DNA of 64,000 nt from an uncultured virus (IMG/VR IMGVR_UViG_3300047564_001460). Taxonomy: Duplodnaviria > Heunggongvirae > Uroviricota > Caudoviricetes. Made by a program: the position numbers and the translations under genes. The notes beneath the pieces were generated by a model. That model was not told the origin of the DNA. It made no database searches and saw only the letters and a list, made by a program, of their open reading frames with translations. Shown here piece by piece: positions 1 through 20,577 of the stretch (positions are counted from its first letter, which is position 1; each line of letters starts with the position of its first letter). The stretch lies in IMG/VR virus record IMGVR_UViG_3300047564_001460; one strand, written 5' to 3'.

Positions 1-66
1 GTATCGGGGGGTCGGATCCTGACATTTGTCAGGCGTCGGGGGGGTTTAATTTCGTTTACGATTAGC

Positions 67-95
67 TTGATTTTCGCGGTGCGTTTTGCTAATCT
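67..95 (+). promoter_or_regulatory. sigma70-type promoter of the first transcription unit
   Basis: TTGATT(67-72)-17 bp-TAATCT(90-95), with TG extension. Confidence 0.6.
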
Positions 96-168
96 TTAAT
101 CATGCGATCGACATTGATCGCTACCGAGTCAGGCGGGTTCCTGACAAATGTCAGCAAAGGGTTCTAAC

Positions 169-678
169 ATGCATGCTAGCACAACGTCAACAGTAGTAGT
201 CGCGGCCGATCAACTCAATGCGGCCGAGGCGATCGGTATCCTCGACGCGGCCCGTCAGGCCGTAGGCGATGCGGTCAGCAAAACCGGCGAGGTTATCGCT
301 AATTATGCAGGTGCACTCTGCGCGGTTTTCGGCCGGACCTGGTTCGAACTCAAGGGTAAGGAAGCCAAGGGTATCCGAGGCGAGCGTGCCAAGTTTGTTG
401 AAATGATGCTCGATCGCGGTGTCGCGGAAGGTTCGGTGGATAAGTATTGGCAGCGCGTCAAAGAGGCGAGCGGGTATCAAACGGCGGGTAACCGTGTGAC
501 CGCTGTCGCGACTCCCGATCAAAAGGTACTTGGCTACCTGCGCAGTGCGATCAACTTGGTTTTGACCTGCGAAGATGAAGGGGTCGATCTTCAAGCGTCC
601 GACTACAAGCATATCCTGATCGAAACCTTCCTCGCGCTCGGCGGGAAAGAAGAAGCCTTGGATTCGAAGGCTAAGTAA
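169..678 (+). CDS. Pre-early hypothetical protein
   Basis: Long ORF downstream of the promoter, GC-rich codon usage; ATG at 169 follows AAAGGG (alternative start 148). Confidence 0.8.
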   Translation: MHASTTSTVVVAADQLNAAEAIGILDAARQAVGDAVSKTGEVIANYAGALCAVFGRTWFELKGKEAKGIRGERAKFVEMMLDRGVAEGSVDKYWQRVKEASGYQTAGNRVTAVATPDQKVLGYLRSAINLVLTCEDEGVDLQASDYKHILIETFLALGGKEEALDSKAK

Positions 679-741
679 TCAACGGGGGGGGATCCCCCCC
701 CTCAAATCCTGACAATTGTCAGGTTTCAAAAGGAAGCTGAA

Positions 742-819
742 ATGGATCAATTTGTAATGGGTTTCATGGTTGCAATGCTGTTAGTAGTCGCAACGCTAAC
801 CACCACGGGAGTGATTTAA
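742..819 (+). CDS. 25-aa hydrophobic peptide (MDQFVMGFMVAMLLVVATLTTTGVI)
   Basis: AAAGGAAG RBS; its TAA abuts the ATG of the next gene; below the ORF-track cutoff. Confidence 0.55.
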   Translation: MDQFVMGFMVAMLLVVATLTTTGVI

Positions 820-1011
820 ATGGACCTTCATGTTTTGCCCGCCTATGGGCGTGATTACAAGAGCAAGTCGGCAGTCCTGGCCGATTGGCTGGCCGGAAAG
901 GATTTCATCGACGCGCGCACTGGCCGGTATCTCAGCATACGCGACGCAAAAGAGTACGCGCTCCAAGTCTGGATCCGGTACGACAAGCAAAGAAAAATAA
1001 TCAAAACCTGA
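820..1011 (+). CDS. Small early phage protein (PAYGRDYKS motif)
   Basis: GGAG RBS; motif recalled from early genes of other podoviruses; stop codon lies inside a palindrome. Confidence 0.75.
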   Translation: MDLHVLPAYGRDYKSKSAVLADWLAGKDFIDARTGRYLSIRDAKEYALQVWIRYDKQRKIIKT

Positions 1012-1031
1012 CAATTGTCAGGTCCCAAATC

Positions 1032-1061
1032 AAACCCGCCTCGGCGGGTTTTTTCGTTTTT
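1032..1061 (+). terminator. Intrinsic terminator
   Basis: AAACCCGCC-TC-GGCGGGTTT followed by T tracts. Confidence 0.85.
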
Positions 1062-1445: not shown

Positions 1446-1458
1446 TAAGTCCTTGATT
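1446..1458 (-). promoter_or_regulatory. IHF-binding consensus site
   Basis: Reverse complement AATCAAGGACTTA matches WATCAANNNNTTR. Confidence 0.6.
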
Positions 1459-1754: not shown

Positions 1755-1783
1755 TTGACTTAGGGGTTAGATTGTGGTATAAT
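1755..1783 (+). promoter_or_regulatory. Strong sigma70 early promoter
   Basis: TTGACT-17 bp-TATAAT with extended -10 TG. Confidence 0.85.
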
Positions 1784-2758: not shown

Positions 2759-2789
2759 AAGCTGACAAATGTCAGGAAAGGAGAATGAG

Positions 2790-3229: not shown

Positions 3230-3582
3230 GAAAGATCGAGAAGTTAGTTTGTGGTGCGTTCGTGAAGCGGGAGATCGCAGGTCAAGGCAACACTGCGTCA
3301 TTCGGCAAAACCCTCTCATTGCACCGCAATCGTATTGCGCGGTGGGTGGAGGTCAAAGACTCATTCGGTAAAAACGCGATCGAGCTGGAGATCAGTCTTG
3401 CTGGGTGGAACACGCCGACAACAAGAAGCAGGTTGAATGCTGTACTGACCCTTCTTGAGTATCCATACCGTGTGCACACCGTCAAAGGTCAACCATACCT
3501 TGGTAATTGGAAGATACCGACCGATGAGTTCTTTCGAGTGGATGCATACCTGATGCAGAGTCGAGAAGCGTGGAGGGACTGA
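3226..3582 (+). CDS. Conserved phage early protein (MRKIE...GWNTPTTRSRLNA type)
   Basis: GGAG RBS; recurrent phage motif. Confidence 0.75.
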   Translation: MRKIEKLVCGAFVKREIAGQGNTASFGKTLSLHRNRIARWVEVKDSFGKNAIELEISLAGWNTPTTRSRLNAVLTLLEYPYRVHTVKGQPYLGNWKIPTDEFFRVDAYLMQSREAWRD

Positions 3583-4025
3583 TGGAGCAGTTAACTGAAC
3601 GAGAACGGATTAGCCGACTGACATATGTCAGGAAGATGGTTGCAAAAGATGGACTGCCGTTGCGTGTCGGCGACTGGTGGGAGACGGTGCCTGTTGAAGA
3701 AGGTAACGGTGTGTTCGTGCACAAGCTGCGCATACGCTCGCTTACTGATAGCAGACAGAAAACCAGAATCATTCAATCCAACCTCATCGTGGACAGCGTA
3801 TCGGGGGGCTTAGATCGAGTAAGGGCTGATGGGTGGAGGATAGCCTTCGGACACTTTATCTGTGACACACCGCCTGACAGCCGACTCAACCTCACGAGGG
3901 TTGACGAGAAGCTGTACCCCATGCTCAACCTGATGCTCAATGATCTGTTTGCTGAGGCAGGACTGCGGATGCGGGTGAGGGGCAGAAGAAACTTCAATGT
4001 ATACAGAGATAGGGACAACATATGA
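3582..4025 (+). CDS. Hypothetical early protein
   Basis: GGAGG RBS, coupled to neighbours. Confidence 0.7.
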   Translation: MEQLTERERISRLTYVRKMVAKDGLPLRVGDWWETVPVEEGNGVFVHKLRIRSLTDSRQKTRIIQSNLIVDSVSGGLDRVRADGWRIAFGHFICDTPPDSRLNLTRVDEKLYPMLNLMLNDLFAEAGLRMRVRGRRNFNVYRDRDNI

Positions 4026-4609
4026 AAGATGCAAAAAAACTAAACGACGCGCAAGCACACGGGGGGTTGGTCATGTGTAAGGAGTCCGAGATACCGAAGC
4101 GGGAGCAGTTGAAACTTATTCTGGAGGAGCACGAGAGACCCTGGGACAAGGAGCCGGACGAGCTATGGTTTGCCATCACGATAAGAAAGAAGGTGGAGCA
4201 GACGATATTCAAGCAGACCTTCGAGTGTGAGATCAGGAGACACCCATCCATGTTGCACCTGTGTGGGTACTTGAGTTTTGTTGTCAGCAGGAGAGCAAAG
4301 GGGTTCGACCCCAAGCAGCTATTCAACATCGTCGAAGAAGCACCGCATGGAGGGGTGACGTACAAAAGCTATGACAGCAAGTACCGTGCGATGGTGATTG
4401 GGTTCGACTGCGCACACATGACTGACTTTTCGCCTGGGTTGTACTTTCCTACGGACGATGGAGCTGTTTGGAGGTTGTCGGGCAACCCCAAGAACTACAA
4501 GACCGAAGCGTTTGTGCGGGAGCAGTTGAACAAGTTAGCCGAGGAGGTCGCAGTGCAGTTGATTGCGTTGGGTTGGTGCGAAGCTGACATTTGTCAGGAG
4601 GGACTGTGA
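4022..4609 (+). CDS. Conserved phage protein (CGY...HGGxTY...GFDCAH family, possibly metal-binding)
   Basis: HLCGY, HGGVTY and IGFDCAH motifs. Confidence 0.75.
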   Translation: MKDAKKLNDAQAHGGLVMCKESEIPKREQLKLILEEHERPWDKEPDELWFAITIRKKVEQTIFKQTFECEIRRHPSMLHLCGYLSFVVSRRAKGFDPKQLFNIVEEAPHGGVTYKSYDSKYRAMVIGFDCAHMTDFSPGLYFPTDDGAVWRLSGNPKNYKTEAFVREQLNKLAEEVAVQLIALGWCEADICQEGL

Positions 4610-5749: not shown

Positions 5750-5780
5750 AACTGACAAATGTCAGGAAGGAGAAGAATCA

Positions 5781-5936
5781 GTGAAACAAATTAAGACTTG
5801 GAATGAACGGTGTGACGAACACCCAGACCACCAGCAGGGGATGATTAGCGAAGGAATGATTAGAGCGAGGATGCAGGAAGAAATTGACGAACTGCGCCAA
5901 GCACTAGAGGAAAAGCTAAAGGAGAAGAACACATGA
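5781..5936 (+). CDS. Small protein ending LRQAL-EEKLKEKNT (modular family)
   Basis: Palindrome plus AAGGAG RBS, then GTG. Confidence 0.7.
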   Translation: MKQIKTWNERCDEHPDHQQGMISEGMIRARMQEEIDELRQALEEKLKEKNT

Positions 5937-6121
5937 GCAAAGATACAGGCGGCCCAGCGTTTCCGCTGTTTGCGGCAACAGGCCATAGCGGTATGACTTT
6001 GCGTGATTACTTTGCAGCTAAGGCTATGCAAGCAATAGCGCAGAAATACAGCCATGAAGGGGATGTTTCACGCAACGCATACAAAATTGCAGATGCTATG
6101 TTGAAAGCGAGGGAGCAATGA
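5933..6121 (+). CDS. Conserved small phage protein (GGPAFP...GMTLRDYFAAKAMQ family)
   Basis: Characteristic motif of a widespread phage early family. Confidence 0.8.
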   Translation: MSKDTGGPAFPLFAATGHSGMTLRDYFAAKAMQAIAQKYSHEGDVSRNAYKIADAMLKAREQ

Positions 6122-6375
6122 ACAAGGAAAATCCAGTGGCGTGGTTTTCTACATCACCTGACGGAAAATTATCAAACAAATTTGCTTGTAAACCAACGGA
6201 AGGTAATTGGGTTGAACCCCTCTACACCGCACCACCAAAGCGTGAGTGGGTTGGTCTGACTGATGAGGAAAAGAGTGACCTGTGGTGCGAATCAACAGGA
6301 CGAGATTGGGTGAATGAGGACACCCATGTGTTTGCTGACGCCATCGAAGCCAAGCTAAAGGAGAAGAACACATGA
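6118..6375 (+). CDS. Modular-family protein (PVAW...PLYTAPP...WVGLT...AIEAKLKEKNT)
   Basis: Blocks shared with neighbours. Confidence 0.8.
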   Translation: MNKENPVAWFSTSPDGKLSNKFACKPTEGNWVEPLYTAPPKREWVGLTDEEKSDLWCESTGRDWVNEDTHVFADAIEAKLKEKNT

Positions 6376-6785
6376 ACTTCCGTATCAAAGACATCAAACA
6401 AGTAGTCCTTCATGCCCAAGGCGGAAGCGGTGGAACAGGCTATATGACAGGAGCAAAAACAATGAGCAGAGAAGCTATGCAACTGGCGCTTGAGGCGCTG
6501 GAGTTATATCAAAGCAGGATGTGCGTTCAAATGTTTGACGAAGCCATCACCGCCCTGCGCCAAGCACTGGAAGAAAAACGAGAGCCGGTTGGCTACTTCA
6601 GCGTCAACGATTACGGGCGTTGGGAAGAAAACGAAGGTACATATGGTGAACCCCTCTACACCGCACCACCAAAGCAATGGGTTGGGCTGACGGCTTATGA
6701 AATACAAGAGATCTATTCAGGAAATCAGCACTGGGGCAATTTTGCTTGCGCCATCGAAGCCAAGCTAAAGGAGAAGAACACATGA
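6372..6785 (+). CDS. Modular-family protein (second in-frame start at 6462, MSREAM)
   Basis: Shared blocks; AGGAG RBS before 6462. Confidence 0.8.
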   Translation: MNFRIKDIKQVVLHAQGGSGGTGYMTGAKTMSREAMQLALEALELYQSRMCVQMFDEAITALRQALEEKREPVGYFSVNDYGRWEENEGTYGEPLYTAPPKQWVGLTAYEIQEIYSGNQHWGNFACAIEAKLKEKNT

Positions 6786-7192
6786 GCAGAGAAGCTATGA
6801 AGCTGGCGCTTGATATGTTGAACGAGATTGCGGATGACGTGTATTGCGACCAAAAATTAGAAGGAGTCATCACCACCCTGCGCCAAGCACTTGTCGATGA
6901 CGTAAACACATCGCAAGAACGTGTCGATGAAACGACGAAACAAGAACATGAGCCGGTGGCGTGGATAAGCGATAGTCCAACGAAAGGCAACGGTAAGCAA
7001 CTGCACTGGGCTAAAGCAGAAGCGTGGAGATGGTCAAGCAATATCACGCCCCTCTACACCACACCACCAAAGCGTGAATGGGTTGGGCTGACGGATGAGG
7101 AGATTCTTGCTGAAATTCCTATAACCACTATCAGACCTGCAACAACATTTGCAAGAGCAATCGAAGCCAAGCTGAAGGAGAAGAACACATGA
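6782..7192 (+). CDS. Modular-family protein
   Basis: MSREAM...LRQAL...EPVAW...PLYT...AIEAKLKEKNT. Confidence 0.8.
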   Translation: MSREAMKLALDMLNEIADDVYCDQKLEGVITTLRQALVDDVNTSQERVDETTKQEHEPVAWISDSPTKGNGKQLHWAKAEAWRWSSNITPLYTTPPKREWVGLTDEEILAEIPITTIRPATTFARAIEAKLKEKNT

Positions 7193-7422
7193 ATGAAATC
7201 GAATTAGTAATTGTCAAGATGGCGCGGGAAGCGGGGTTTCGTGTTGGCCCGTCCCGAGATGGGCCTGATGATGTGTGGGGCATTGGTGTAAACCTTGAAC
7301 GCTTCGCTGCCCTTGTTGCTGCTACCGAGCGTGAGGCGTGTGCGAAGGTGTGCCTTGAAGAAGCACCAAGTCTTGATGGGCAGTTGTGCGCCGACGCCAT
7401 ACGAGCAAGGGGACAGGCATGA
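7189..7422 (+). CDS. Conserved small phage protein (ERFAALV..EREACA..CADAIRARG family)
   Basis: Recurrent phage motif. Confidence 0.75.
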   Translation: MNEIELVIVKMAREAGFRVGPSRDGPDDVWGIGVNLERFAALVAATEREACAKVCLEEAPSLDGQLCADAIRARGQA

Positions 7423-7727
7423 AGGACTACCTGGCAGGCCAGAGAAGAACAATGGCTGAAAACAAAACAGCAAAGACACCAACGGATGGTGGAACAGGTT
7501 TTATCGACGGTGTGTGGCATGGGCCTACGGCGTGGCAGTGTCAATGCGGCAAACCCTATACGGTCACTTGTATTTCAAGCACACCGTTAAAGCGTGAATG
7601 GGTTGGGCTGACGGATGATGTTGTGTTTGAGCTAGCAGACACAAACCTTTACGAAGGTGGCAAGAATTTTGGTGTGCTGGCGTTTGCTAAAGCGATTGAG
7701 CAAGCCCTAAAGGAGAAGAACACATGA
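7419..7727 (+). CDS. Modular-family protein
   Basis: KREWVGLTD...AIEQALKEKNT. Confidence 0.75.
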   Translation: MKDYLAGQRRTMAENKTAKTPTDGGTGFIDGVWHGPTAWQCQCGKPYTVTCISSTPLKREWVGLTDDVVFELADTNLYEGGKNFGVLAFAKAIEQALKEKNT

Positions 7728-8059: not shown

Positions 8060-8090
8060 GCAAGCTGACAAATGTCAGGAAGGAGAGCGA

Positions 8091-9027: not shown

Positions 9028-9066
9028 CCTGACAAAAGTCAGGTAGTCAACTGTACGTGAAAAAAT

Positions 9067-9095
9067 TTGACTTAGGGTTTTATTTGTGGTACAAT
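9067..9095 (+). promoter_or_regulatory. sigma70 early promoter of the AAA+/VWA operon
   Basis: TTGACT-17 bp-TACAAT, TG extension; shares TTTGACTTAGGG with the 1755 promoter. Confidence 0.82.
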
Positions 9096-9185
9096 ATAAG
9101 ATAGTGGTAGATGTATCTGTAGTACCTGAGTCAGGCGGGATTCCTGACAATTGTCAGTCATTAGAGTTCATTAGAGGAGTTTGAA

Positions 9186-10250
9186 ATGTCAGAAGTTTCT
9201 TTCGGTAAGTCCATCACACTCAAGCAAGCAGCTAACCTCATCAAGTCCAACCCAGAGACTAGGTTTCTTTTGCAAGGCGAGCCTGGTATCGGCAAGTCCT
9301 CTCTGCTTGAAAACATCGCCGAGGATCTCGGCTACGACTATGCGTATATCGACGTACCCAATATGGATCTGGGTGACATCGCGATGCCTGTGATCGATCA
9401 CGAAACCAAAACGACGCGCTACTACCCCAACGCTAGATTCAAGGTGCATCAGGGCAAACCTGTCGTCATCATGCTCGACGAGTTTACGAAGGGTGCCGAG
9501 CCGGTCAAGAACATGCTGCACCCTATGCTTGAGAAGGCTAACCCACGCCTGGGTGACATTACCCTGGACAAACGTTCACCTATCTTTCTTACGGGCAACT
9601 TGAGTACTGATGGTGTGGGCGACAACTTGAAAGCACACAGCCGCAATCGTATCGTGCCCGTGACAATCAGCAAGCCGACTGCGGAGGAGTGGATCGAGTG
9701 GGGCTCAAACAAGGGTATCGAAGCCGAGGTGCTGGCCTGGGTGTATCAGTTTCCCCAAGTATTGGCTAGCTATCGCGATGGTAACCAGAGCGAGAACCCC
9801 TACATCTATAACCCCAAGAAGCCGCAAGCTGCGTTCGTTTCGCCACGTTCACTTGAGACTGCTAGCAACATCATACGTAGCAGGAGGTTCCTCGATTCGG
9901 ATACGGTTATCTCTGCGTTGACTGGTGCGATCGGTGAGTCTGGTGCGAGGGACATGCAAGCCTATATTGAGTTCGCCGATCAGCTCCCAACGTGGGAAGC
10001 AACGATCAAAGAGCCCAAGACTGCGCCTGTGCCTACGAGTGCAGGTGCGTGTGCAATTGTCGTGTTCGGTGCAATTGCACGTATCACTAAGGATACTATT
10101 ACCCCATTCATGGAGTACCTGGAGCGGTTTGAGTCTGAGTGGCAAGCCGTGTTCGCTATCAACATCGCTAAGACTCCAAGTAAGCAAGCGATTGCGTTTT
10201 CGTGCAAAGCGTTCGCTAACTGGGTCTCGAAGAACCAAGACTTACTGTAA
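9186..10250 (+). CDS. MoxR-type AAA+ ATPase
   Basis: Walker A GEPGIGKS, Walker B IMLDEF, FLTGN sensor, SPRS. Confidence 0.88.
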   Translation: MSEVSFGKSITLKQAANLIKSNPETRFLLQGEPGIGKSSLLENIAEDLGYDYAYIDVPNMDLGDIAMPVIDHETKTTRYYPNARFKVHQGKPVVIMLDEFTKGAEPVKNMLHPMLEKANPRLGDITLDKRSPIFLTGNLSTDGVGDNLKAHSRNRIVPVTISKPTAEEWIEWGSNKGIEAEVLAWVYQFPQVLASYRDGNQSENPYIYNPKKPQAAFVSPRSLETASNIIRSRRFLDSDTVISALTGAIGESGARDMQAYIEFADQLPTWEATIKEPKTAPVPTSAGACAIVVFGAIARITKDTITPFMEYLERFESEWQAVFAINIAKTPSKQAIAFSCKAFANWVSKNQDLL

Positions 10251-10292
10251 AAAATCTGGCTACTGACAAATGTCAGGAAAGGAGCGCTGAAT

Positions 10293-10577: not shown

Positions 10578-10578
10578 G

Positions 10579-11793
10579 ATGGATGAAGAACGTAAACTGA
10601 AGAAGGCAAAGATCTCGCTCATGCGGGATCCCCGCTTTGCCCTGTGGCAAGGCATCATGATGGTCGGTAAGACGGTGGTCTCCGATAACGTACCGACTGC
10701 GGCAACAAACGGTCGAGACGAGATCTATGGTCGCAAGTTCATCAAAGAGCTATCCGACGCTGAGCTTAACTTTGTCGTGCTGCACGAGAGCTTGCACAAA
10801 GCCTATCGGCACCTGACCACATGGAAGAAGCTGCATGACGAGAATCACCGCCTAGCTAACGCTGCTTGTGACTACGTTATTAACTTGAAGCTGAGGGACA
10901 TGGATCCATCAGGCAGGACGTTGGCTTTCCCCAAGTTCAAGACAGGCAAGTTGGCAGGTAAGGAGATGGGCCTGATCGACGAGCGGTTCCGTGGGATGAA
11001 CACCAAGCAAGTCTTCGACATTCTTAAGCAGGAGATGAAGGATGGCGGCGGTGGGGGTGGTGGCGATGACAATTGTCAGGACGGGTTCGACGAGCATGAC
11101 TGGGATAGTGCGAAGGACATGACCGAGGAGGAGAAGCGCGAGCTTAGCCGAGACATTGATCAAGCACTGCGGCAAGGTCAGATGGCGGCGGCAAAAATTG
11201 CCGGTAAGAACGCAGGTGGTATCGATCGTGAGCTTCAGGATCTGCTCGAACCAAAGCTAGATTGGCGTGAGGTGCTACGCGAGTTCGTTAAAGCAACCTG
11301 CTATGCGAAAGATGCGAGTAGCTGGCGCAAAGTAAACAGGAGGTACTTAAGTACAGGGATGTACATGCCGACGCTGATCGGTGAGAAGGTTGGGCACTTG
11401 GTCGTTGCCGTCGATACGTCTGGCTCGATCGGTTCGGCTGAGCTGGCTGACTTTCTTAGCGAGGTTAAGGGTATCGCAGAAGAGGTAAACCCTGACAAGG
11501 TGGACTTGATCTATTGGGACGCTAAGGTCGCTGGGCATGAGGAGTATGGACTAGGAACTGTGGAGTCAATCATTCAATCAACAAAGCCACGCGGTGGTGG
11601 AGGCACTGCGCCTTCGTGCGTATCGCAATACTTAAAGGAGAAAGCAATTGTTCCAGAGTGCATCGTTGTTCTCACGGATGGCTATGTGGGTGGCGACTGG
11701 GGTTCTGATTGGGAGGCTCCGTTGCTATGGGTTATCACGCAAAACAGCACCGTTGTTGCGGATCACGGCAAAACAATTCATATGCCTCACTAA
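10579..11793 (+). CDS. HExxH metallopeptidase-like plus VWA domain protein (DUF2201-like)
   Basis: PTAATNG, LHESLH, ANAACDYVIN, MIDAS DTSGS, GGGT, LTDG. Confidence 0.88.
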   Translation: MDEERKLKKAKISLMRDPRFALWQGIMMVGKTVVSDNVPTAATNGRDEIYGRKFIKELSDAELNFVVLHESLHKAYRHLTTWKKLHDENHRLANAACDYVINLKLRDMDPSGRTLAFPKFKTGKLAGKEMGLIDERFRGMNTKQVFDILKQEMKDGGGGGGGDDNCQDGFDEHDWDSAKDMTEEEKRELSRDIDQALRQGQMAAAKIAGKNAGGIDRELQDLLEPKLDWREVLREFVKATCYAKDASSWRKVNRRYLSTGMYMPTLIGEKVGHLVVAVDTSGSIGSAELADFLSEVKGIAEEVNPDKVDLIYWDAKVAGHEEYGLGTVESIIQSTKPRGGGGTAPSCVSQYLKEKAIVPECIVVLTDGYVGGDWGSDWEAPLLWVITQNSTVVADHGKTIHMPH

Positions 11794-11809
11794 TAAATGG
11801 AGAAGCAAA

Positions 11810-12049
11810 ATGGTCGTAGTTAATTTGGGATACAGCACAAGCATTGTAGTTACCAAAGAGGATGCAATGGCTTTGGTCGGCATCCTTGAACGTTCGTATG
11901 CGTGGGACGAGAAGTATGTGTCTAAGAACGATTCGGAGACAGGGGAGTCGCATTACTTGTACTACGCATACCCCAGTACCAATATGCCGACGATGAAGAT
12001 CGTCAACGATGAAGTCTTTACGATGGCTAAGTTAGCAGGTAAGCCCTGA
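11810..12049 (+). CDS. Hypothetical protein
   Basis: GGAG RBS; stop codon inside a palindrome. Confidence 0.7.
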   Translation: MVVVNLGYSTSIVVTKEDAMALVGILERSYAWDEKYVSKNDSETGESHYLYYAYPSTNMPTMKIVNDEVFTMAKLAGKP

Positions 12050-12103
12050 CAAATGTCAGGAGTTAGAGTTGTTCGTGTCGTTAGTAATCATTAGGAGAAT
12101 CAA

Positions 12104-12967
12104 ATGAGCATTAGTGCATCAGCAGTTCTGGTCGAGCTGAATATCAGCGTATGGCCCGCATCAAAGATCGACAAAGAAGTTACCGAGTTCACCAATAGAA
12201 ATGCATCCGCTGTGGCCGATGCGTCTCAAACCAAGAAGAACCTCTTTGCAGGTACGTCCTTACGCAAAGACATTGAGAAGTTCGCAGCTCGCGTTCGTCT
12301 CTATCACAACCAACACACTCTCCCGTGGGCAGACAAAGGCGAGCGTCTTTTGCCGACCAAGCTGTTCATGGACTACAAGATTAGTATGAATACGTTCGAG
12401 CATACCTTCGACAGTATGTGCAACGAATTCTTTCAGGCGTACCCATCGCTTGTTGCTCAGGCTCCCATGAACCTCGGTACGTTGTTCAAAGCCGAGGACT
12501 ATCCAGACCTGGATGATGTCAAGCTGAAGTTTGGATTCCGTCGGTCGGTCAACCCGCTGCCTGAGTCTGGTGACTTCCGCTTAGATATTCCGTCGGATGA
12601 CTTAGCCGAGATGCGCAGTGAGTATGAAGCCAAGTTCGAGGAGCGGCTCGCCGATGCGATGCGCACCCCGTGGGATCGCTTACACACTATGCTGACGAAT
12701 ATCTCCGAGAAGCTAACTGATACGAAGCGAGAGGAAGAGGAAGGCAAGACCAAGCGTTATCACGACTCTCTGGTTACCAACGCGCTAGACCTGTGCTCCC
12801 TGCTGAGCAAGCTGAACATCACCAACGATCCGAAGTTGGAGGAAGCGCGTCGGCAGTTGGAGATAACGATGGTGGGTACGAACATAGCAGCAATCAAAGA
12901 TGATCCTGCCGAGCGTGTCCAGATCAAGTCGCGTGTCGATGCAATCCTCAACAAGTTTTCCTGGTAG
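12104..12967 (+). CDS. DUF3150-like helical protein (partner of the AAA+/VWA module)
   Basis: AVLVELNISVW...TKKNLF...HTLPW pattern and context. Confidence 0.65.
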   Translation: MSISASAVLVELNISVWPASKIDKEVTEFTNRNASAVADASQTKKNLFAGTSLRKDIEKFAARVRLYHNQHTLPWADKGERLLPTKLFMDYKISMNTFEHTFDSMCNEFFQAYPSLVAQAPMNLGTLFKAEDYPDLDDVKLKFGFRRSVNPLPESGDFRLDIPSDDLAEMRSEYEAKFEERLADAMRTPWDRLHTMLTNISEKLTDTKREEEEGKTKRYHDSLVTNALDLCSLLSKLNITNDPKLEEARRQLEITMVGTNIAAIKDDPAERVQIKSRVDAILNKFSW

Positions 12968-12998
12968 TCCTGACAATTGTCAGCCATTGGAGATAAGT

Positions 12999-13907
12999 AT
13001 GAATACCGATAAAGATTTACTAGAACATCCCAACGTTCGCCTGTCTGAAGATCTCACGAAGAAATACCCTGACGCTAAAATCCTTTTGCATCAGCAGTCA
13101 ACTAGCTCGCGCAAATTGATTGATCTTATCGAGTTGGTGCTTACTGAGAAGCCGACGTGGTTGGTTGTTGCTAACGCAGTACGACCAGACAGAAACAACG
13201 ACCCTCAAAACCTTTACCCCGAGAGGTTTCGGCTGGAGTCAAACGGAGATGCTTTGGGTCAGGTATCAATGCACTACCGTCACGGTTATGGGTATGTGTA
13301 TGAGGTTCACAATCAGCGTATCGCAGATGCATACGAACGAGCGGACAGTCTTAGGACTGCTGATATTAAGAAAGCACTAGCGACTATCAAGAAGAAGTTC
13401 TACGCTCGGACCCCGTTGGAAGTTTTACTCGATACGAACAAAGCAGCAAAGAGAATGGCGCAGCATCAGGCTTGGGAAACGTGTAGAGCGGCTGACGCGT
13501 TGGAGCGGAACATAAGAGATAAAGCTGTTGACTTTGTTACTGGCCCTGGCTGGCATCACTTTCTTGATTACATATCGGAGTCTGGCAGTGCGGCTGAAAG
13601 TTTGAAGTTAAAGCTGCACAAGATGTTGGGGGACCGAGATGAAGAGGGGCAAAAGAAAATAGCTGCTAGTGAGATACACGACAAGTTTGATAAGAATGAT
13701 GGTCTGCTTGTTGTGCAGAACGGTAGTAGGTATATGGTGTGTCCTATGGAGTCTCAGCAGTACGAGCACCACACTGACGATACGTTGCCAGAAGATACAA
13801 GGATGAAGCTAGGTCTACTTAAGTTGGTAGATGAAGGCTTTCTCATCAGTAATGTGGGTATTAGAGTTTCTAAAAACACGTTTGCGTTGACAATGGAGGT
13901 ACAATAA
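12999..13907 (+). CDS. Hypothetical protein
   Basis: GGAG RBS after a palindrome; long ORF. Confidence 0.8.
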   Translation: MNTDKDLLEHPNVRLSEDLTKKYPDAKILLHQQSTSSRKLIDLIELVLTEKPTWLVVANAVRPDRNNDPQNLYPERFRLESNGDALGQVSMHYRHGYGYVYEVHNQRIADAYERADSLRTADIKKALATIKKKFYARTPLEVLLDTNKAAKRMAQHQAWETCRAADALERNIRDKAVDFVTGPGWHHFLDYISESGSAAESLKLKLHKMLGDRDEEGQKKIAASEIHDKFDKNDGLLVVQNGSRYMVCPMESQQYEHHTDDTLPEDTRMKLGLLKLVDEGFLISNVGIRVSKNTFALTMEVQ

Positions 13908-13908
13908 A

Positions 13909-14148
13909 ATGTCTGAGTACAACGTTACTGTGAGACCAAATCCTCACTATAGAAAACGTGACGACGGTGGGCCGTTTATTATAAGCGACCCTAGATTTAA
14001 GTACGTACCTGCATCCGCTACAGACGTAAGAGAATCGTGGAAGCGGTACGGTTGGACACCTAGTGAGAAAAGAAATGGAGCCGAAGAACATGAGATCCCT
14101 GCAAAACCTTTTTCGTCAAATGCTGGGTATTCCCGAGTTAGGTGGTAG
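13909..14148 (+). CDS. Hypothetical protein
   Basis: GGAGG RBS; FKYVPASATDVRESW motif. Confidence 0.65.
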   Translation: MSEYNVTVRPNPHYRKRDDGGPFIISDPRFKYVPASATDVRESWKRYGWTPSEKRNGAEEHEIPAKPFSSNAGYSRVRW

Positions 14149-14154
14149 ATAGAA

Positions 14155-14305
14155 TTTCACACTCCCATGGACTGATAGGGCGGCGCACTAGCCTAGCAGA
14201 TGTGAGTGTGTGCTGTCGGCTACCTTCTGGAGTGTGTGGAAAGTTTGTGAGAGGGTAGTCCTTCCTAGACATGACGGGGGGCATGTAATCTGCTCGACCC
14301 CCCAA
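14155..14305 (+). ncRNA. Candidate structured intergenic RNA
   Basis: Four complementary segment pairs in a 170-nt intergenic gap (see findings). Confidence 0.35.
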
Positions 14306-14323
14306 CCAAACAAGGAGATAACA

Positions 14324-14527
14324 ATGATTGATGCCGACTCACCCGCTAACTGCCCGAAGCGCAAAAAGCGGGGGTTGATTACCGACGAAGAGTTAGCAAG
14401 GAGTTGGCCGTTTGGACGTGTAGATCCTAAGCGTTGTGAGTGGTACCACAGGGAGAAGCAAGCCAAGCGGACAGCAAAGAAAGACCTCCTGACATTTGTC
14501 AGCGAGGTGGGAGAAGCACCTTTTTAG
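14324..14527 (+). CDS. Hypothetical protein
   Basis: AAGGAG RBS. Confidence 0.65.
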   Translation: MIDADSPANCPKRKKRGLITDEELARSWPFGRVDPKRCEWYHREKQAKRTAKKDLLTFVSEVGEAPF

Positions 14528-14535
14528 GAGTAGTT

Positions 14536-14733
14536 ATGGAAGAACCAGTGGAGGGTGATAAGCCCCCCAAAAGGAGACGGGGCCCTGGTAAGAAGCCCCC
14601 TATGTTGTGTACAAGTTTGCGCTTACCCAAGGAAGTGATGGAGTATTTTGATCAGTTCCCTAACAAGCAAACACGTATGAGAGAAGTACTAACAGAGTTT
14701 GTTAAACGTCAACAAGGAAATTACGATGAGTAA
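14536..14733 (+). CDS. BrnA-antitoxin-like ribbon-helix-helix protein
   Basis: RGPGKKP...SLRLPKEVMEYF...QTRMREVL resembles the BrnA family. Confidence 0.7.
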   Translation: MEEPVEGDKPPKRRRGPGKKPPMLCTSLRLPKEVMEYFDQFPNKQTRMREVLTEFVKRQQGNYDE

Positions 14734-15172
14734 AAAACAAGAGATAATTGAATATATAACCGCAAACCCAACGGCTAAAGCAGCAGCAGTTGCCTACCTG
14801 TTCGGTACGAGTGCGCAGGTGGTCTATCAGATTAAGTCGGACGCAGGACTATCGAAGCCACGCACAAACAAGACTGCGAAACCCAAGGCGGCTAAGAAAG
14901 CTGCACCTCGCAAAGCAAGGGCAAAGCAGGTTACCGTGGAGATCGAAGAAGTGGATGAGGTCAATCATCCCCCCCATTACTTGGTCGGCGGTATCGAGGT
15001 TATCGACTACATCAAAGCCAAGCTGACTCCCGAGGAATTCCGTGGGTACTTGAAGGGCAACGTGATCAAATACATCAGTCGTGCCGACCACAAGAACGGC
15101 ATGATCGATTGGGGTAAAGCCGATTGGTATGTTGACAGATACCGCAAAGAGGTAGAACATAGTCACGTTTGA
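14726..15172 (+). CDS. DUF3310 (SaV/T7 gp1.7-like) protein with N-terminal HTH-like and Lys/Ala-rich linker
   Basis: DEVNHPPHY..GGIEVIDYI...GYLKGNVIKY..R..HKNG...KA.WY. Confidence 0.85.
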   Translation: MSKKQEIIEYITANPTAKAAAVAYLFGTSAQVVYQIKSDAGLSKPRTNKTAKPKAAKKAAPRKARAKQVTVEIEEVDEVNHPPHYLVGGIEVIDYIKAKLTPEEFRGYLKGNVIKYISRADHKNGMIDWGKADWYVDRYRKEVEHSHV

Positions 15173-15207
15173 TCTTGTGGTAAGGGTGCTGACATTTGTC
15201 AGCTTGT

Positions 15208-15233
15208 GCCGCCTTTTTAGGCGGCTTTTTTTT
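15208..15233 (+). terminator. Intrinsic terminator ending the early operon
   Basis: GCCGCCT-TTTT-AGGCGGC followed by T8. Confidence 0.88.
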
Positions 15234-15238
15234 GTCTG

Positions 15239-15266
15239 TTGACACTGTAAAATGTTGTGTTATGAT
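15239..15266 (+). promoter_or_regulatory. sigma70 promoter of the replication operon
   Basis: TTGACA-16 bp-TATGAT with TG extension. Confidence 0.7.
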
Positions 15267-15297
15267 GCTCCTCCGATTTGATTTACTGGAGCATCAA

Positions 15298-15603
15298 TTG
15301 GCTAAAACACCAGAAGCCAAAGTAAAAGATAGCATCAAAAAAATACTAAAAGAAAACGATGTCTATTACGCTATGCCTATAGGTACAGGCTTTGGTAGTT
15401 CAGGAGTCCCAGATTTTCTTTGCTGCGTGCAAGGTAGATTTGTGGGTATCGAAGCAAAGGCAGGGGGCAATCTACCTACTGACCTTCAACTTAAAAACAT
15501 GAACAGCATAAACGCCGCAGGTGGGGTGACAATTGTCATCGATGAAGTTAACGTTAAAGCGTTAAGTGGCTACATAAAACTCATTAAGGAAAACAAGGTA
15601 TGA
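15298..15603 (+). CDS. VRR-NUC domain nuclease (Holliday-junction-resolvase-like)
   Basis: TPEAKVK, GVPDFL, FVGIEAKA, PTDLQ; TTG start after GGAG. Confidence 0.88.
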   Translation: MAKTPEAKVKDSIKKILKENDVYYAMPIGTGFGSSGVPDFLCCVQGRFVGIEAKAGGNLPTDLQLKNMNSINAAGGVTIVIDEVNVKALSGYIKLIKENKV

Positions 15604-16013
15604 ACGAAGGACTAAAAATAGTATTAGAACGCATGCGCACAAACCCCGAAGAGTTTGGTGAAGACTCTAAAAAGTGGAGGTGGATCAATGGCTTTGCCGA
15701 CGCTTTGGATGCTGACGAATTAAAAGCGTTAGCGGCTGGGAAAAGAAAAGCATTGAGAGAGCTGTTCACCCGTAGAGTTATGGCTACGTTGGTGGATATT
15801 AAACTTGATTTGGATGAACTTGAAAGTGAAAGTATGTCGCAGTTAGGGGCGGCAATATCGGGGGTAAAAGCAGCAATCGGGTCAGGAACGGCGATAAGCA
15901 ATATGAGTTATAAGCCGAACCCTATTACAACATCGACAGATTCTCCTGGCAAACTAATCTTATCGCAATCAGAACTTATTAGACTCAAAGCAATGATGAA
16001 AGAAGTTGAATGA
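15600..16013 (+). CDS. Hypothetical protein
   Basis: ATGA-coupled ORF. Confidence 0.7.
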   Translation: MNEGLKIVLERMRTNPEEFGEDSKKWRWINGFADALDADELKALAAGKRKALRELFTRRVMATLVDIKLDLDELESESMSQLGAAISGVKAAIGSGTAISNMSYKPNPITTSTDSPGKLILSQSELIRLKAMMKEVE

Positions 16014-17830
16014 ATATACTTACCATAGACTTTGAAACGTACTACGATCGGGAGTTCAGCCTGACCAAACTGACTACGGAGGAGTACATCCGTGACAACA
16101 GGTTTGAAACCATCGGCGTATCGGTGCAGGTTAACGACGGTGAACCTGAATGGTTCAGCGGTAAAACAGAGGACCTATACCAGTTCCTGAAGGAGTATGA
16201 CTGGGGGAATAGTTTAGCCCTTGCGCATAACGCGATGTTCGACGGTGCCATCCTTAACTGGATCTTTAATATCAAACCGAAAGGTTGGTTAGATACATTG
16301 AGCATGGCCCGAGCATTGCACGGCACTGAGGTGGGTGGTAGCCTAGCGGTATTAGCGAAGCACTACGACATAGGGCAGAAAGGTGATGAAGTCATTCATG
16401 CGTTGGGTAAACGACGAATTGATTTTTCTGCTGCTGATCTTGCTCGGTATGGCGCTTATTGTTCCAATGATGTTGCTCTTACTTATGATCTTTTTGGATA
16501 CATGAGCAACGGGTTCCCCCAAACGGAACTTCGCCTTATAGACCAAACCATCCGCATGTTCACCGAGCCAGAACTAAGGCTCGATGTGAAAGTATTAAAG
16601 ACGCACCTGCTTGAGTTACAGCAAAGAAGGAAAGATCTGGTACAAAACTTCAGTGAAGCCGATTTGATGAGCAACCAGAAGTTTGCCGCTATATTGCTTG
16701 CATGGGGCGTAGAACCCCCAACGAAGATTAGCCCGACGACAGGCAAAACAACTTTCGCATTCTCAAAGACCGATGAGGAGTTCAAGGCACTCCTTGATCA
16801 TCCGAACGCAGAAGTACAAAACTTGGTAGCTTCACGGCTAGGAGCTAAGTCCACACTGGAGCAGACTCGGACGGAAAGGTTCTTGGGTATAGCGTATCGG
16901 GGCGAACTCCCTGTGCCCTTGCGGTATTACGCTGCACATACGGGCAGATGGGGAGGTGACGACAAGTTGAATCTACAAAATCTCCCAAGGTCGTCTCCAC
17001 TTAAGAAAGCAATCATAGCTCCTGACAAATATCAGATCGTCGATTCCGACTCATCACAGATCGAAGCACGTACGCTTGCTTGGCTTGCGGGGCAAGATGA
17101 TTTGGTCGATGCGTTCGAGAAGGGTGAGGACGTGTACAAAATAATGGCCTCGGCGATTTACAACAAGCCGGTGAATGACATAACCAAGGACGAGCGGTTT
17201 GTCGGTAAGACGACAATTTTAGGCGCAGGGTACGGCATGGGGGCTAAGAAGTTTCAGGCGCAGCTTAAGAACTTCAAGGTGGAGGTGGAGCTTGAGGAAG
17301 CGCAGCGCATCATCGATACGTACCGCGAGACATACCCAAAGATTCGCCGACTGTGGTTCGACGCAGGGGAGGCCCTCTCGGCCATTATGAACAATCAGCA
17401 GACCTTTCTTGGGCGCGACGACTTGTTAGCGGTTGAGGGTACGAAGGGTATTAAACTGCCGAACGGCCTGTATATTCGGTATCCCAATTTGCGTATGCAC
17501 ACTGCTGAAGAAGGCGGTAAGAGCGAGCTTGTGTACGACACACGCAGAGGCAAACAGACAGTACCGAACAGGATTTACGGTGGGAAGGTTGTCGAGAATG
17601 TGTGCCAAGCATTAGCACGAATTATCATCGGCGAGCAGATGCTTTTGGTCGCGAAAAAGTATAGAGTTGTGATGACAGTGCACGATGCTATTGCTTGTTT
17701 AGTTCCAGAGATGGAGATAGACAACGGTGTTGAGTACGTCGAGTTGTGCATGAAGATACGCCCATCCTGGGCACCCGAACTACCTCTTAATTGTGAGGCC
17801 GGACATGGTTACTCTTACGGTGATTGCTAG
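16010..17830 (+). CDS. polA: Family A DNA polymerase with 3'-5' exonuclease
   Basis: ExoI DFET, HNAMFD, HTGRWGG, NLQNLP, motif A DSSQIEAR, motif B RFVGKTTILGAGYG, motif C VHD. Confidence 0.95.
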   Translation: MNILTIDFETYYDREFSLTKLTTEEYIRDNRFETIGVSVQVNDGEPEWFSGKTEDLYQFLKEYDWGNSLALAHNAMFDGAILNWIFNIKPKGWLDTLSMARALHGTEVGGSLAVLAKHYDIGQKGDEVIHALGKRRIDFSAADLARYGAYCSNDVALTYDLFGYMSNGFPQTELRLIDQTIRMFTEPELRLDVKVLKTHLLELQQRRKDLVQNFSEADLMSNQKFAAILLAWGVEPPTKISPTTGKTTFAFSKTDEEFKALLDHPNAEVQNLVASRLGAKSTLEQTRTERFLGIAYRGELPVPLRYYAAHTGRWGGDDKLNLQNLPRSSPLKKAIIAPDKYQIVDSDSSQIEARTLAWLAGQDDLVDAFEKGEDVYKIMASAIYNKPVNDITKDERFVGKTTILGAGYGMGAKKFQAQLKNFKVEVELEEAQRIIDTYRETYPKIRRLWFDAGEALSAIMNNQQTFLGRDDLLAVEGTKGIKLPNGLYIRYPNLRMHTAEEGGKSELVYDTRRGKQTVPNRIYGGKVVENVCQALARIIIGEQMLLVAKKYRVVMTVHDAIACLVPEMEIDNGVEYVELCMKIRPSWAPELPLNCEAGHGYSYGDC

Positions 17831-17858
17831 GAGCCCCGAATTGAAAGTGGAGACTGTT

Positions 17859-18029
17859 ATGGATTATGCGGAACACATTCTCAACGCAGAGAAAAATCTA
17901 CGTGACGCATACAATTTGATGCAAGAAGGTAAATCCCTCGAAGCCGCAGTGGCTGCGCTTGAAGCAGTAGCAGACGCAAAGATGGCATACACCGCTATAA
18001 AGTACACCAACCCGAGGGATGCTGCGTAA
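17859..18029 (+). CDS. Small helical hypothetical protein
   Basis: GGAG RBS; coupled to the next gene. Confidence 0.6.
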   Translation: MDYAEHILNAEKNLRDAYNLMQEGKSLEAAVAALEAVADAKMAYTAIKYTNPRDAA

Positions 18030-18694
18030 TGGCACACGTTGCTTGGTCGTACAGTAGCCTGAAGACATTCCAGCAATGTCCGAGGAAGTATTACCACACG
18101 AAGGTAGCTAAAGATTTTCCTGAGCCACAAACTCAGGCGATGCTGTACGGCGAGCAAGTCCACAAAGCTGCTGAAGACTTTATCAAGTCAGGCACACCCA
18201 TACCCGAGAAGTTCGAGTTCATCCGTGAGGTTGTCGAGCAGCTTGCATCCCTGCCTGGGGAGAAGCACTGTGAGCTTCGCTTGGGGTTAACCAAAGACCT
18301 GAAGCCTTGCGGATTCTTTGATAAGAACGTTTGGTGGCGTGGGATTGCCGACTTGGTTATCGTGAACGAAGAGAAAGGGCTCATCCACTCGATAGACTAC
18401 AAGACAGGCAAGAGTGCTCGGTATGCTGACGTACAGCAACTTGATCTTGTAGCAGCGGGTCTGTTCGCTAAGTTTCCGAACATTACAAAAATAAAGTCGG
18501 CACTGCTTTTTGTGGTGAGCAAAGAGTTCGTTAAGGCTACGCACCAAGCGGATATGGTTGAGCAGTACGTAAGCAAACCCGCGCAAGATGTAGCGCGTAT
18601 TGAAGCTGCTTTAGAGAATGGGGTATGGAACCCCGTTGAGAGTGCGCTGTGCAAATTCTGCCCAGTGAAAACATGCGAGTACAACAGGAGCTAA
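18029..18694 (+). CDS. PD-(D/E)XK (RecB/Cas4-like) exonuclease
   Basis: WSYSSL..F.QCPR, GIADL, IDYKTGK, C-terminal CKFCPVKTC. Confidence 0.9.
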   Translation: MAHVAWSYSSLKTFQQCPRKYYHTKVAKDFPEPQTQAMLYGEQVHKAAEDFIKSGTPIPEKFEFIREVVEQLASLPGEKHCELRLGLTKDLKPCGFFDKNVWWRGIADLVIVNEEKGLIHSIDYKTGKSARYADVQQLDLVAAGLFAKFPNITKIKSALLFVVSKEFVKATHQADMVEQYVSKPAQDVARIEAALENGVWNPVESALCKFCPVKTCEYNRS

Positions 18695-18696
18695 TC

Positions 18697-19011
18697 ATGC
18701 CCTATGTAAACAAACCACGCCCGTACAAAAAAGAGTACCAACAGCAGTTAGCTCGGGGGGAGCACGAGAATCGAATGGAGCGGCAACGAGCCCGTGAAGC
18801 CATCGATAAAAAGAACCCCGATCGTGATAAGGATGGGATTGCGGACATACGTGAAGGTAAAGACGTTGCCCATCGCGTAGCACTCTCAAAGGGTGGCACG
18901 AACGGTAACGGCACTCGGTTGGAAAGCGCAGCAAAGAACCGATCGTTTAAGCGCAACGCCAACCACAAACTTGTTTCGGAGACTAGTAAGAAGGAGAGCA
19001 AAAAGAAATGA
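18697..19011 (+). CDS. HNH-like endonuclease
   Basis: KDVAH..ALSKGGTN....R......NRS. Confidence 0.7.
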   Translation: MPYVNKPRPYKKEYQQQLARGEHENRMERQRAREAIDKKNPDRDKDGIADIREGKDVAHRVALSKGGTNGNGTRLESAAKNRSFKRNANHKLVSETSKKESKKK

Positions 19012-19202
19012 CCGATGAACAAATGTGGCTCTTAATTCATGGGCGACAGGAAGTGCCTTGGTATAAAGTAATAACAGGACTGACGGGAGAACAAATAACT
19101 GATCCACTTTTTGCACGACTAAGAGATGCAGGAAAACTTAAAGCAGACATAGGTCGAATGACAGTTAGACTAAAGGAAGAAAATGAATCTATCAGAGTAT
19201 GA
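19008..19202 (+). CDS. Hypothetical protein
   Basis: AAGGAG RBS, ATGA overlap. Confidence 0.6.
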   Translation: MTDEQMWLLIHGRQEVPWYKVITGLTGEQITDPLFARLRDAGKLKADIGRMTVRLKEENESIRV

Positions 19203-20577
19203 GTGGCCCTGTCCAAGAGGGCTCGCTCCGTTTGAACATCAGAAGGTGACGGCTGAGTTTTTAGTGAGTAAGCGGAAAGCATTTTGTTTCAATGAGCAAG
19301 GTACAGGCAAGACTGCATCGGTTATCTGGGCAGTGGACTATTTGATGAACATCGGGTTGTTGAACCGAGTGCTTATCATTTGCCCGTTGTCGATCATGAA
19401 GTCTGCATGGCAAGCCGACTTGTTCAAGTTTGCTATTCATCGGAGAGTAGCCGTAGCTTATGGGTCGGCGGAGAAGCGCAGGGAAATCATCAAGGGCATG
19501 TCCGAGATCGTTATCATTAATTTTGATGGTGTCGGCATAGTCAAGAAAGAGATCGCTAACGGTGGGTTTGATTTGATCGTTGTCGATGAAGCGTCTGCCT
19601 ACAAGAATGCGCAGACTGAGCGGTGGAAAGACCTACGCGACCTGACAAAAGTCATCAAGGGGTTGTGGATGTTGACGGGAACCCCTGCCGCACAAGCACC
19701 TACCGACGCATTCGGTTTAGCCAAGCTAGTGAACCCCAACGGTATACCCATGTTCTTCGGGCAGTTCAGGGATATGGTGATGCAGAAGCTGACCATGTAC
19801 CGATGGATACCCAGACCCAACGCCGAGAAGATTGTTTTCAACGCGCTGCAACCTGCGATACGGTTCGAGAAAAAGCACTGCCTCGACCTGCCCCCCGTTA
19901 CGTTTGCGGAAAGAGATGCACCCATGACTCCGCAGCAAAGAGCCTATTACGCAAAGCTAAAGAAGCAGATGCTGATTGAGGCAGCGGGCGAAGAGGTATC
20001 TGCTGTGAATGCAGCAGTACAGATAAACAAGCTGCTACAGATTGCTGGTGGTGCGGTGTATGCCGACTCGGGTGAGGTGTTGGAGTTTGACGTGAAGCAC
20101 CGACTGAACGTGGTGCAGGAAGTCATCGAAGAAGCCTCGAACAAAGTGCTAGTCTTTGTACCGTTTACACATACGATCGAGTTGTTGGAGAAGCACCTGA
20201 CCGCAGCCAAGATTACGTGTGCGGTTATCAACGGATCAGTAAGCGTCAACAAACGATCCGAGATTGTGAAAGACTTCCAAGATAAACCCGAGCCCCGAGT
20301 GCTTATCATTCAACCGATGGCAGCTTCGCATGGGCTTACACTAACCGCAGCCGACACCATCATTTGGTACGCACCTTGTTCAAGTGTGGAAACGTACCTC
20401 CAAGCAAACGCACGGATCGATCGACCAGGACAGAAGAACAACATGACCATCGTGCACATCAAAGGAAGTCCAGTCGAATCAAGGATGTACAGCTTGCTGC
20501 GTAGCAACATCAACGACCATAAACGCGTCATTGATTTATATAAACAAGAACTGTCTGAAGAAGAGTTGACAGTGTAA
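19183..20577 (+). CDS. SNF2-family (SF2) helicase
   Basis: EQGTGKT, VVDEAS, LTGTP, HGLTLT, QANARIDRPGQ. Confidence 0.92.
   Translation: MNLSEYEWPCPRGLAPFEHQKVTAEFLVSKRKAFCFNEQGTGKTASVIWAVDYLMNIGLLNRVLIICPLSIMKSAWQADLFKFAIHRRVAVAYGSAEKRREIIKGMSEIVIINFDGVGIVKKEIANGGFDLIVVDEASAYKNAQTERWKDLRDLTKVIKGLWMLTGTPAAQAPTDAFGLAKLVNPNGIPMFFGQFRDMVMQKLTMYRWIPRPNAEKIVFNALQPAIRFEKKHCLDLPPVTFAERDAPMTPQQRAYYAKLKKQMLIEAAGEEVSAVNAAVQINKLLQIAGGAVYADSGEVLEFDVKHRLNVVQEVIEEASNKVLVFVPFTHTIELLEKHLTAAKITCAVINGSVSVNKRSEIVKDFQDKPEPRVLIIQPMAASHGLTLTAADTIIWYAPCSSVETYLQANARIDRPGQKNNMTIVHIKGSPVESRMYSLLRSNINDHKRVIDLYKQELSEEELTV

Follow-up and report, generated by a model that had tools for sequence, protein, structure and literature searches.

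A clade-wide array of palindromic sites in the early arm of an uncultured freshwater podovirus, with gp1 as its candidate reader

Some phages disperse many copies of one short DNA site across their genomes. In Cluster A mycobacteriophages these are operators and stoperators, bound by repressors such as those of L5 and TipsytheTRex (PMC9283540), and Cluster O mycobacteriophages carry 17-bp palindromic repeats in more than 30 copies (PMC4351075). Here we describe an array of CTGACA-WW-TGTCAG palindromes in 64,000 nucleotides of an uncultured virus (IMG/VR IMGVR_UViG_3300047564_001460; the window below means this whole stretch), together with its first early gene, gp1, whose product very probably reads them. 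The array is real, selected and clade-wide. On our best reading, it works like stoperators, the phiC31 array or the Cluster O arrays but belongs to none of them.

Comparison with Cluster A supports the stoperator-like layout that a first-pass annotation of the window, made from the sequence alone, had proposed. In both systems the dispersed sites number more than 20, and many of them occupy short gaps between genes. In Cluster A, one phage protein of about 170–180 amino acids (aa) is the reader and a block to elongation is proposed; gp1 is the candidate for that role here. As described there (PMC9283540), stoperators are asymmetric and orientation-dependent, are bound by a monomer with a helix-turn-helix (HTH) and a stoperator domain, and belong to temperate phages. 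By contrast, our sites are palindromic, and their coding strand shows AA as well as TT centres; they avoid core promoters and stay in the early arm; and gp1 is a predicted homodimer in which no HTH match was found. Integrase, resolvase and ParB domains (PF00589, PF00239, PF02195) were absent from five of five complete relatives, and no integrase or partition system was found among 87 window proteins, as the first pass had remarked of integrases.

Other dispersed arrays share some of these features. Cluster O repeats (PMC4351075) are also dyads with an A/T centre in both orientations, lie both between and within genes, and occur in phages without integrase or ParAB; their consensus differs, they are spread genome-wide with most copies away from promoters, and such palindromes have no identified reader or function. 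Here, all 84 early promoters scored have a site, sites keep to the early arm, and a named candidate reader co-varies with them; the clade also offers natural specificity variants and a testable two-residue prediction. Streptomyces phage phiC31, whose repressor c binds conserved inverted repeats, has dispersed palindromes too (11 copies in bases 17000–41491), but it is temperate, has an integrase, and its c protein (683 aa, annotated ‘repressor of lytic genes’) does not resemble the gp1 profile (hhalign probability 0.2%, E 0.28). The KorB operators of IncP plasmids, like the matS sites of E. coli MatP, are dispersed palindromes bound by a dimer, which works away from promoters or organises a DNA domain. 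A predicted dimer is likewise the candidate reader here; unlike KorB, it comes from a clade with no ParB-family match in the five complete relatives, and unlike MatP, it is modelled as all-helical, without the ribbon-helix-helix (RHH) strand. Our literature search, with supplements and subscription journals outside its scope, found no description of the motif or of gp1, and the main text of PMC9599517 contains neither ‘palindrom’ nor ‘operator’.

The palindrome array and its conservation

The array is dense, precisely spaced and restricted to one arm of the genome. This uncultured phage is a freshwater podovirus whose terminase is of the HTVC023P/DSL-LC04 type. Small early genes, an AAA ATPase/VWA pair and the genes for DNA polymerase, helicase and primase lie on the plus-strand arm; the minus-strand arm encodes terminase, portal, capsid and tail proteins together with a DarB-like protein of 2270 aa. 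We recounted 18 exact copies of CTGACAWWTGTCAG (CTGACA-WW-TGTCAG) between 19 and 15202, with centres AA (seven), TT (four), AT (six) and TA (one), just as first described. Allowing one mismatch gave 21 matches, against a mean of 0.05 and a maximum of 1 in shuffled sequence. TGACA-N-TGTCA occurs 20 times at spacer 2 and at most once at each other spacer from 0 to 11, and sites fall about once per 800 bp. Positions 15211–25200 hold one one-mismatch and two two-mismatch copies (0.03 and 0.08 expected). The virion arm is empty, as had been claimed: 25201–64000 has no copy at up to two mismatches, with 0.5 expected, and a two-mismatch copy at 36016, with a non-W centre, is at chance level. The degenerate copies previously listed exist, two of the 14-mers beginning one base earlier than given (11066 and 15526, not 11067 and 15527). 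Re-reading the sequence also bore out the reported stop-codon overlaps, Shine-Dalgarno fusions and neighbouring promoters. The sites, which carry no strand, are as follows (CDS, coding sequence).

19–32: exact, TT centre; upstream of the gp1 promoter
141–154: exact, AA; gp1 leader, with an in-frame ATG at 148 inside the site
709–722: exact, AT; past the gp1 stop, homologous position in 29/37 loci
1008–1021: exact, AT; overlaps a stop codon, directly 5′ of the terminator at 1032–1051
1344–1357: exact, AT; in an AT-rich non-coding stretch
1904–1917: exact, AT; leader of gene 1946, homologous position in 33/38 loci
2281–2294: exact, AA; fused to a Shine-Dalgarno sequence
2762–2775: exact, AA; fused to a Shine-Dalgarno sequence
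3618–3631: exact, TA; within CDS 3582–4025, which has no homolog in 80 loci
4584–4597: exact, TT; gene end, fused to the following Shine-Dalgarno sequence
5752–5765: exact, AA; fused to a Shine-Dalgarno sequence
8065–8078: exact, AA; fused to a Shine-Dalgarno sequence
9029–9042: one mismatch; past a stop, upstream of promoter P9067
9144–9157: exact, AT; ATPase leader, homologous position in 49/49 loci
10263–10276: exact, AA; fused to a Shine-Dalgarno sequence
11066–11079: one mismatch; linker of the VWA gene, identical in L083 and L088
12046–12059: exact, AA; overlaps a stop codon
12970–12983: exact, AT; past a stop codon
14489–14502: exact, TT; end of small CDS 14324–14527, identical in L083 and L088
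15189–15202: last exact copy, TT; directly 5′ of a terminator
15526–15539: two mismatches, W centre; in a VRR-NUC-like gene, identical in L083 and L088
17022–17035: one mismatch; in DNA polymerase
19642–19655: two mismatches, W centre, the weakest copy; in helicase

Relatives carry sister arrays. We recovered one set of loci through the ATPase (the best 80 of 288) and a second through gp1 (66 loci, with the motif not looked at during selection); counts over them concern related genomes and are hence not independent. At least five sites of one class occur in 70 of the 80 ATPase-selected relatives. CTAACA-N-TGTTAG (spacer 1) dominates 41 loci and a form with a 2-bp centre 29, namely CTAACA-NN-TGTTAG or, in L074 and L075, the window’s TGAC form; the other 10 are short, have few sites or mix the classes. 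With one pattern for all the forms, 30 of 31 genomes gave a match and the reversed control none, and among the complete records listed with matches (G004, G006, G009) the sites cluster within 9–15 kb. Across 51 non-redundant loci, about 87% coding by a simple gene caller, 303 of 670 sites are intergenic, 161 cross a gene end, 67 lie near one and 139 lie deep in genes. Homologous junctions always hold the genome’s own site class and never another, as in the ATPase leader (49/49).

Synonymous codons preserve sites inside genes, and selection acts on DNA rather than on RNA or protein. The ATPase peptide SNIVR is encoded as an exact spacer-1 site in 22 of 24 spacer-1 loci versus 7 of 23 spacer-2 loci, and by scattered synonymous codons elsewhere (Fisher p 1.7e-5, kinship not corrected). 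The first pass had surmised selection from the window’s own in-gene sites; these codons in relatives now supply the evidence.

That the motif serves as an RNA hairpin, or as a crossover site for recombination, instead of an operator is extremely unlikely. The A-to-G change between classes is compensatory on both arms, and two 35-nt repeats of site plus Shine-Dalgarno sequence flank a gene absent from the 80 relatives. Against a hairpin, G–U-compatible variants make up 4 of 78 one-mismatch sites at spacer 2 and 2 of 21 at spacer 1, both arms show mirror-image variants, the centres come in either orientation, and Rfam has no match for the motif. Against recombination, no recombinase was found in the five complete relatives, and the 15 joints displayed of 100 all fall within the site-free 6.0–7.6 kb block. 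A dimeric DNA-binding protein, which the first-pass annotation had preferred to an RNA signal, agrees with the scarcity of G–U variants, with the predicted gp1 homodimer and with the co-variation described below. CTAAC..GTTAG resembles integron attC ends; we rejected that identity, as the TGAC class lacks GTT and no integrase was found in the window or the five complete relatives.

gp1 and the specificity of the sites

gp1 is very probably the reader, and direct binding is what its co-variation with the sites suggests.

169–678, plus strand: gp1, first early gene, putative cognate dimeric DNA-binding protein (169 aa; predicted recognition helix, residues 87–100)

The first pass had looked to conservation of the sites in relatives and to co-variation with one DNA-binding gene; the sister arrays show the former, and gp1 is the candidate that shows the latter. 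Clustering all open reading frames yielded two homologous first-gene families (hhalign 97%), one found only in 29 spacer-1 loci and the other only in 18 spacer-2 loci, the window included. In the ATPase-fetched set, spacer class changes once on the gp1 tree versus four to seven times on those of nine other genes. A simple rule equating gp1 subfamily with spacer held in 47 of 47 loci of this first set. In the wider set, 9 of 44 type-b TAAC loci broke it by having spacer 1, and a residue rule was put in its place.

Two residues on one predicted helix track the two features of the site. Of 85 distinct gp1 sequences, 70 could be classified, the others having fewer than four sites, mixed sites or too short a contig. 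Among 66 TAAC genomes, position 89 is Asn in 31 of 31 with spacer 1 and Thr, Ser or Val in 35 of 35 with spacer 2; no other of 153 columns separates the two perfectly. At position 92, all four TGAC genomes have Lys and none of the 66 TAAC genomes does, again the one perfect column, here out of 154: Lys92 accompanies TGAC, and Val, Thr or Asn92 accompanies TAAC. Two further short contigs, representing one Lys92 protein, have two TGAC sites each in 1 kb. Both positions lie in helix 87–100 beside an invariant Trp94 and a near-invariant Arg96. In standard chemistry, Lys reads guanine and Val or Thr packs on the thymine methyl.

Some loci without a recognisable gp1 have few sites. L054/L056, L030 and L031 have a different first gene, equal in size and at most weakly related to gp1 (hhalign 12%); in L009 the first gene lies outside the locus. 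These loci keep one to five sites, with a site after 1 of 11 promoters. G008 (97% complete) has a single site, inside the VWA gene, and no gp1 match at E 0.01.

Structure prediction supports a dimer. The gp1 model is all-helical and has two domains, the second spanning residues 116–156 (predicted local distance difference test, pLDDT, 85.7; predicted template modelling score, pTM, 0.58). Modelled as a pair, gp1 is predicted to form a two-fold symmetric homodimer: it scored 0.66 against 0.00 for the best of three controls, with contact agreement between runs of at least 97% and pLDDT of at least 79. Among 30 solved homodimers, 20 reached the homodimer mark, as did 1 of 23 monomers.

Searches for a family or fold of gp1 yielded nothing usable. 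Homologs found numbered 59 representatives, including two spurious repeat proteins, and 264 proteins among 8000 scored; none of the 120 listed has a Pfam domain. PHROG had no match and neither did 50,697 annotated phages. The best hits were at E 0.09 in Pfam for the window's gp1 (2 of 76 members weakly hit an integrase SAM-like entry, E 0.035) and E 0.27 in PDB profiles. Foldseek found nothing at E below 0.001, and VIA gave a best Z of 6.8 (root-mean-square deviation 3.5, 77 residues aligned), a result that does not establish a new fold. Atlas neighbours DUF3102 (0.83–0.88) and a phiC31-type repressor (0.80, chance level) are leads only.

Of six proteins nominated by the first pass, gp1 alone co-varies with the sites. 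The RHH protein at 14536 (BrnA-like, Pfam E 0.005, below cut-off) is near-identical across classes and needs six changes on its own tree. The HTH protein at 21934 has an identical recognition helix in all classes and in a site-poor genome, with five changes. Those at 8416, 8091 and 7724 have matches in 5, 0 and 0 of the 80 relatives.

A host transcription factor is a highly improbable reader. gp1 would then co-vary only because both it and the sites follow the host, and phages do carry sites for host factors, as with Spo0A boxes in phi29 (PMC2731898) and CtrA (PMC9437464). Yet spacer-1 genomes span a G+C fraction of 0.44–0.55 that overlaps the other classes, L005 and its ATPase-tree neighbours L074/L075 belong to different classes, and single gp1 residues follow base and spacer.

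Site placement and a proposed roadblock on early genes

Sites follow the early promoters. The window’s transcription signals, all on the plus strand, are these.

67–95, plus strand: putative sigma70 promoter of gp1 (P67), TTGATT-17-TAATCT, between sites 19 and 141; below the scan threshold, with homologous promoters in relatives
1032–1051, plus strand: intrinsic-terminator-like hairpin ending the gp1 unit
1755–1783, plus strand: sigma70-like early promoter (11/12)
9067–9095, plus strand: sigma70-like early promoter of the ATPase/VWA operon (P9067)
15208–15225, plus strand: intrinsic-terminator-like hairpin ending the early region; equal layout in relatives
15239–15266, plus strand: promoter with a 16-bp spacer (P15239) for the nuclease/DNA polymerase/helicase block; leader without a site

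We scored placement over 49 loci, leaving out L009 and L031 as site-poor. Consensus early promoters (17-bp spacer) are followed by a site centred at +32 to +120, mostly +37 to +60, in 84 of 84 cases, and a site occupies the core promoter in none; with a site in every early leader, the array is therefore tied to promoters. Replication-block promoters (16-bp spacer) have an upstream site in 30 of 30 cases, with a mode at −86, and a downstream site in 1 of 30; in the examples displayed, a terminator separates the upstream site from the promoter. A site flanks the gp1 promoter in 40 of the 44 loci where our script found that promoter (it detected none in 25, the window included, and one was skipped), and in 33 of the 44 an upstream site lies at about −54 to −106.

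We favour, at a probability of roughly 0.57, a reading in which the palindromes are operators for gp1 and its dimers form a negative-feedback roadblock on early transcription that spares the replication genes. Host sigma70 polymerase would make gp1 first. Helix 87–100 of the dimer would read each half-site, position 92 setting the base (Lys for TGAC) and, among TAAC sites, position 89 the centre (Asn for 1 bp, Thr, Ser or Val for 2 bp). As gp1 accumulated, it would fill the site in each early leader together with those at junctions and in genes. Bound gp1 may block elongation, possibly with looping between sites, and so turn down the early arm, gp1 itself included. The replication promoter, behind a terminator and with no site in its leader, would stay on. 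Given binding, repression is the probable outcome. The first pass had offered shut-off, coating or protection of the early arm; promoter-linked positions favour transcriptional control, and one site per roughly 800 bp is thin for coating.

Several observations weigh against this reading. The subfamily rule failed in the gp1-fetched loci, where the wider gp1 tree needs five spacer changes, and the residue columns that replaced it were picked post hoc. On a tree built without the helix each trait changes about four times, and supported branches hold two pairs that are independent (sign test p 0.5). Spacer 2 goes with Asn89 in three of the four TGAC (Lys92) proteins, so position 89 does not suffice as a rule by itself. 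Loci with Gln92 are ambiguous, L137 having eight TAAC spacer-1 and four TGAC sites and L140 three TGAC sites, and 15 of 85 gp1 loci dropped out of the residue test. gp1 matches no known DNA-binding family or fold in the searches above. The sites that precede terminators, and those near −86 relative to the replication promoter, would fit activation or looping as well.

A mainly architectural job for bound gp1 seems rather unlikely. It could bridge or loop the first-entering 15 kb, ratchet DNA entry or shield it from host defences, and transcription units are indeed bracketed by sites at both ends (141 to 1008; 9144 to 15189, each end before a terminator). Sites are also densest near the genome end and maintained inside genes, and gp1 has its second helical domain. 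The site in 84 of 84 early leaders speaks against this account, as does the loss of most sites in lineages with a different first gene.

A positive role for gp1 is doubtful. Here it would load or help RNA polymerase in early leaders, or activate the replication promoter from about −86 while repressing the early ones, as phi29 p4 does. p4 sits near −82. It recruits polymerase to the late A3 promoter (PMC2731898). The upstream site at all 30 replication promoters and at most gp1 promoters fits such a role. Its distance may, however, merely reflect the terminator between site and promoter; the promoters concerned are near consensus and need little help; and polymerase-loading signals are usually asymmetric.

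It is very unlikely that gp1 confers immunity as the repressor of a lysogenic state without integration or of a carrier state. The layout does resemble the stoperators of temperate phages (PMC9283540), and gp1 is seemingly autoregulated. No tyrosine integrase, resolvase or ParB was found in the five complete relatives or the window, pattern-limited searches of GTDB genomes found no relative of the ATPase or gp1, and replication and late genes are almost unguarded.

If the roadblock reading is true, it would explain early-gene timing in a common group of uncultured freshwater phages using host polymerase only, and add a compact sequence-specific DNA-binding family without known relatives. A bolder version is less likely than not: gp1 may found a DNA-binding family whose fold is undescribed, with base and half-site spacing set by two residues a helical turn apart, and a change in gp1 would be followed by the rewriting of a dozen or more sites across the early arm. 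The array might then silence or fold the first-entering DNA as a unit in a lytic phage, putting stoperator logic to a lysogeny-free use, and perhaps create exclusion groups among co-infecting relatives.

Genome context and variant arrays

The identity of the terminase to its nearest annotated counterparts is 58% for DSL-LC04 and 53% and 47% for Pelagibacter phages HTVC027P and HTVC023P; no close match to the early arm was found in cultured phages. Besides two samples from which the phage may come, three runs hold at least half of the early-arm words; they are aquatic or freshwater metagenomes of three studies. Within the virion arm, the 2270-aa DarB-like protein (25266–32078) has weak ART-PolyVal and LPD39 matches, below cut-off, and a GroES-like gene (59123–59560) lies within the head module.

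Parts of the early arm look modular. The longest site-free gap, 5892–7727, consists of successive small genes that are assembled from shared modules and overlap at their stop/start junctions, and very high contig depth with many joints in two metagenomes suggests module shuffling. The near-identical 35-nt repeats at 2278–2312 and 2759–2793, each a site, Shine-Dalgarno sequence and start, enclose a polynucleotide-kinase-like gene; contigs of two other runs lose their match at 2313–2314, and genes may be swapped at these units. A common 12-nt element lies directly 5′ of leader sites 141 and 9144 (126–137 and 9129–9140), each copy with a short inverted repeat between it and the promoter.

The AT-rich non-coding stretch at 1085–1750 has short repeats and is a candidate replication origin; at the equivalent position, L015 (6718–6880), L030 (6531–7095) and L031 (1037–1640) carry 19-bp tandem repeats. 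A CTGC-N11-GCAG signal in site-poor genomes proved to be a 19-bp tandem repeat. Site-poor relatives have a third kind of first gene (L054, 4475–4984 and 5533–6045; L030, 5721–6245; L031, 253–771), for which no cognate motif was found; the two copies in L054 each have their own promoter. TGAC-type arrays, some with looser centres, also occur in L085/L127 (G020), L110 and L093, where the stretches fetched have no gp1 match. L007, whose first gene lies outside the locus, carries the variant CTTATA-WW-TATAAG at homologous positions (264, 5084 and 9208).

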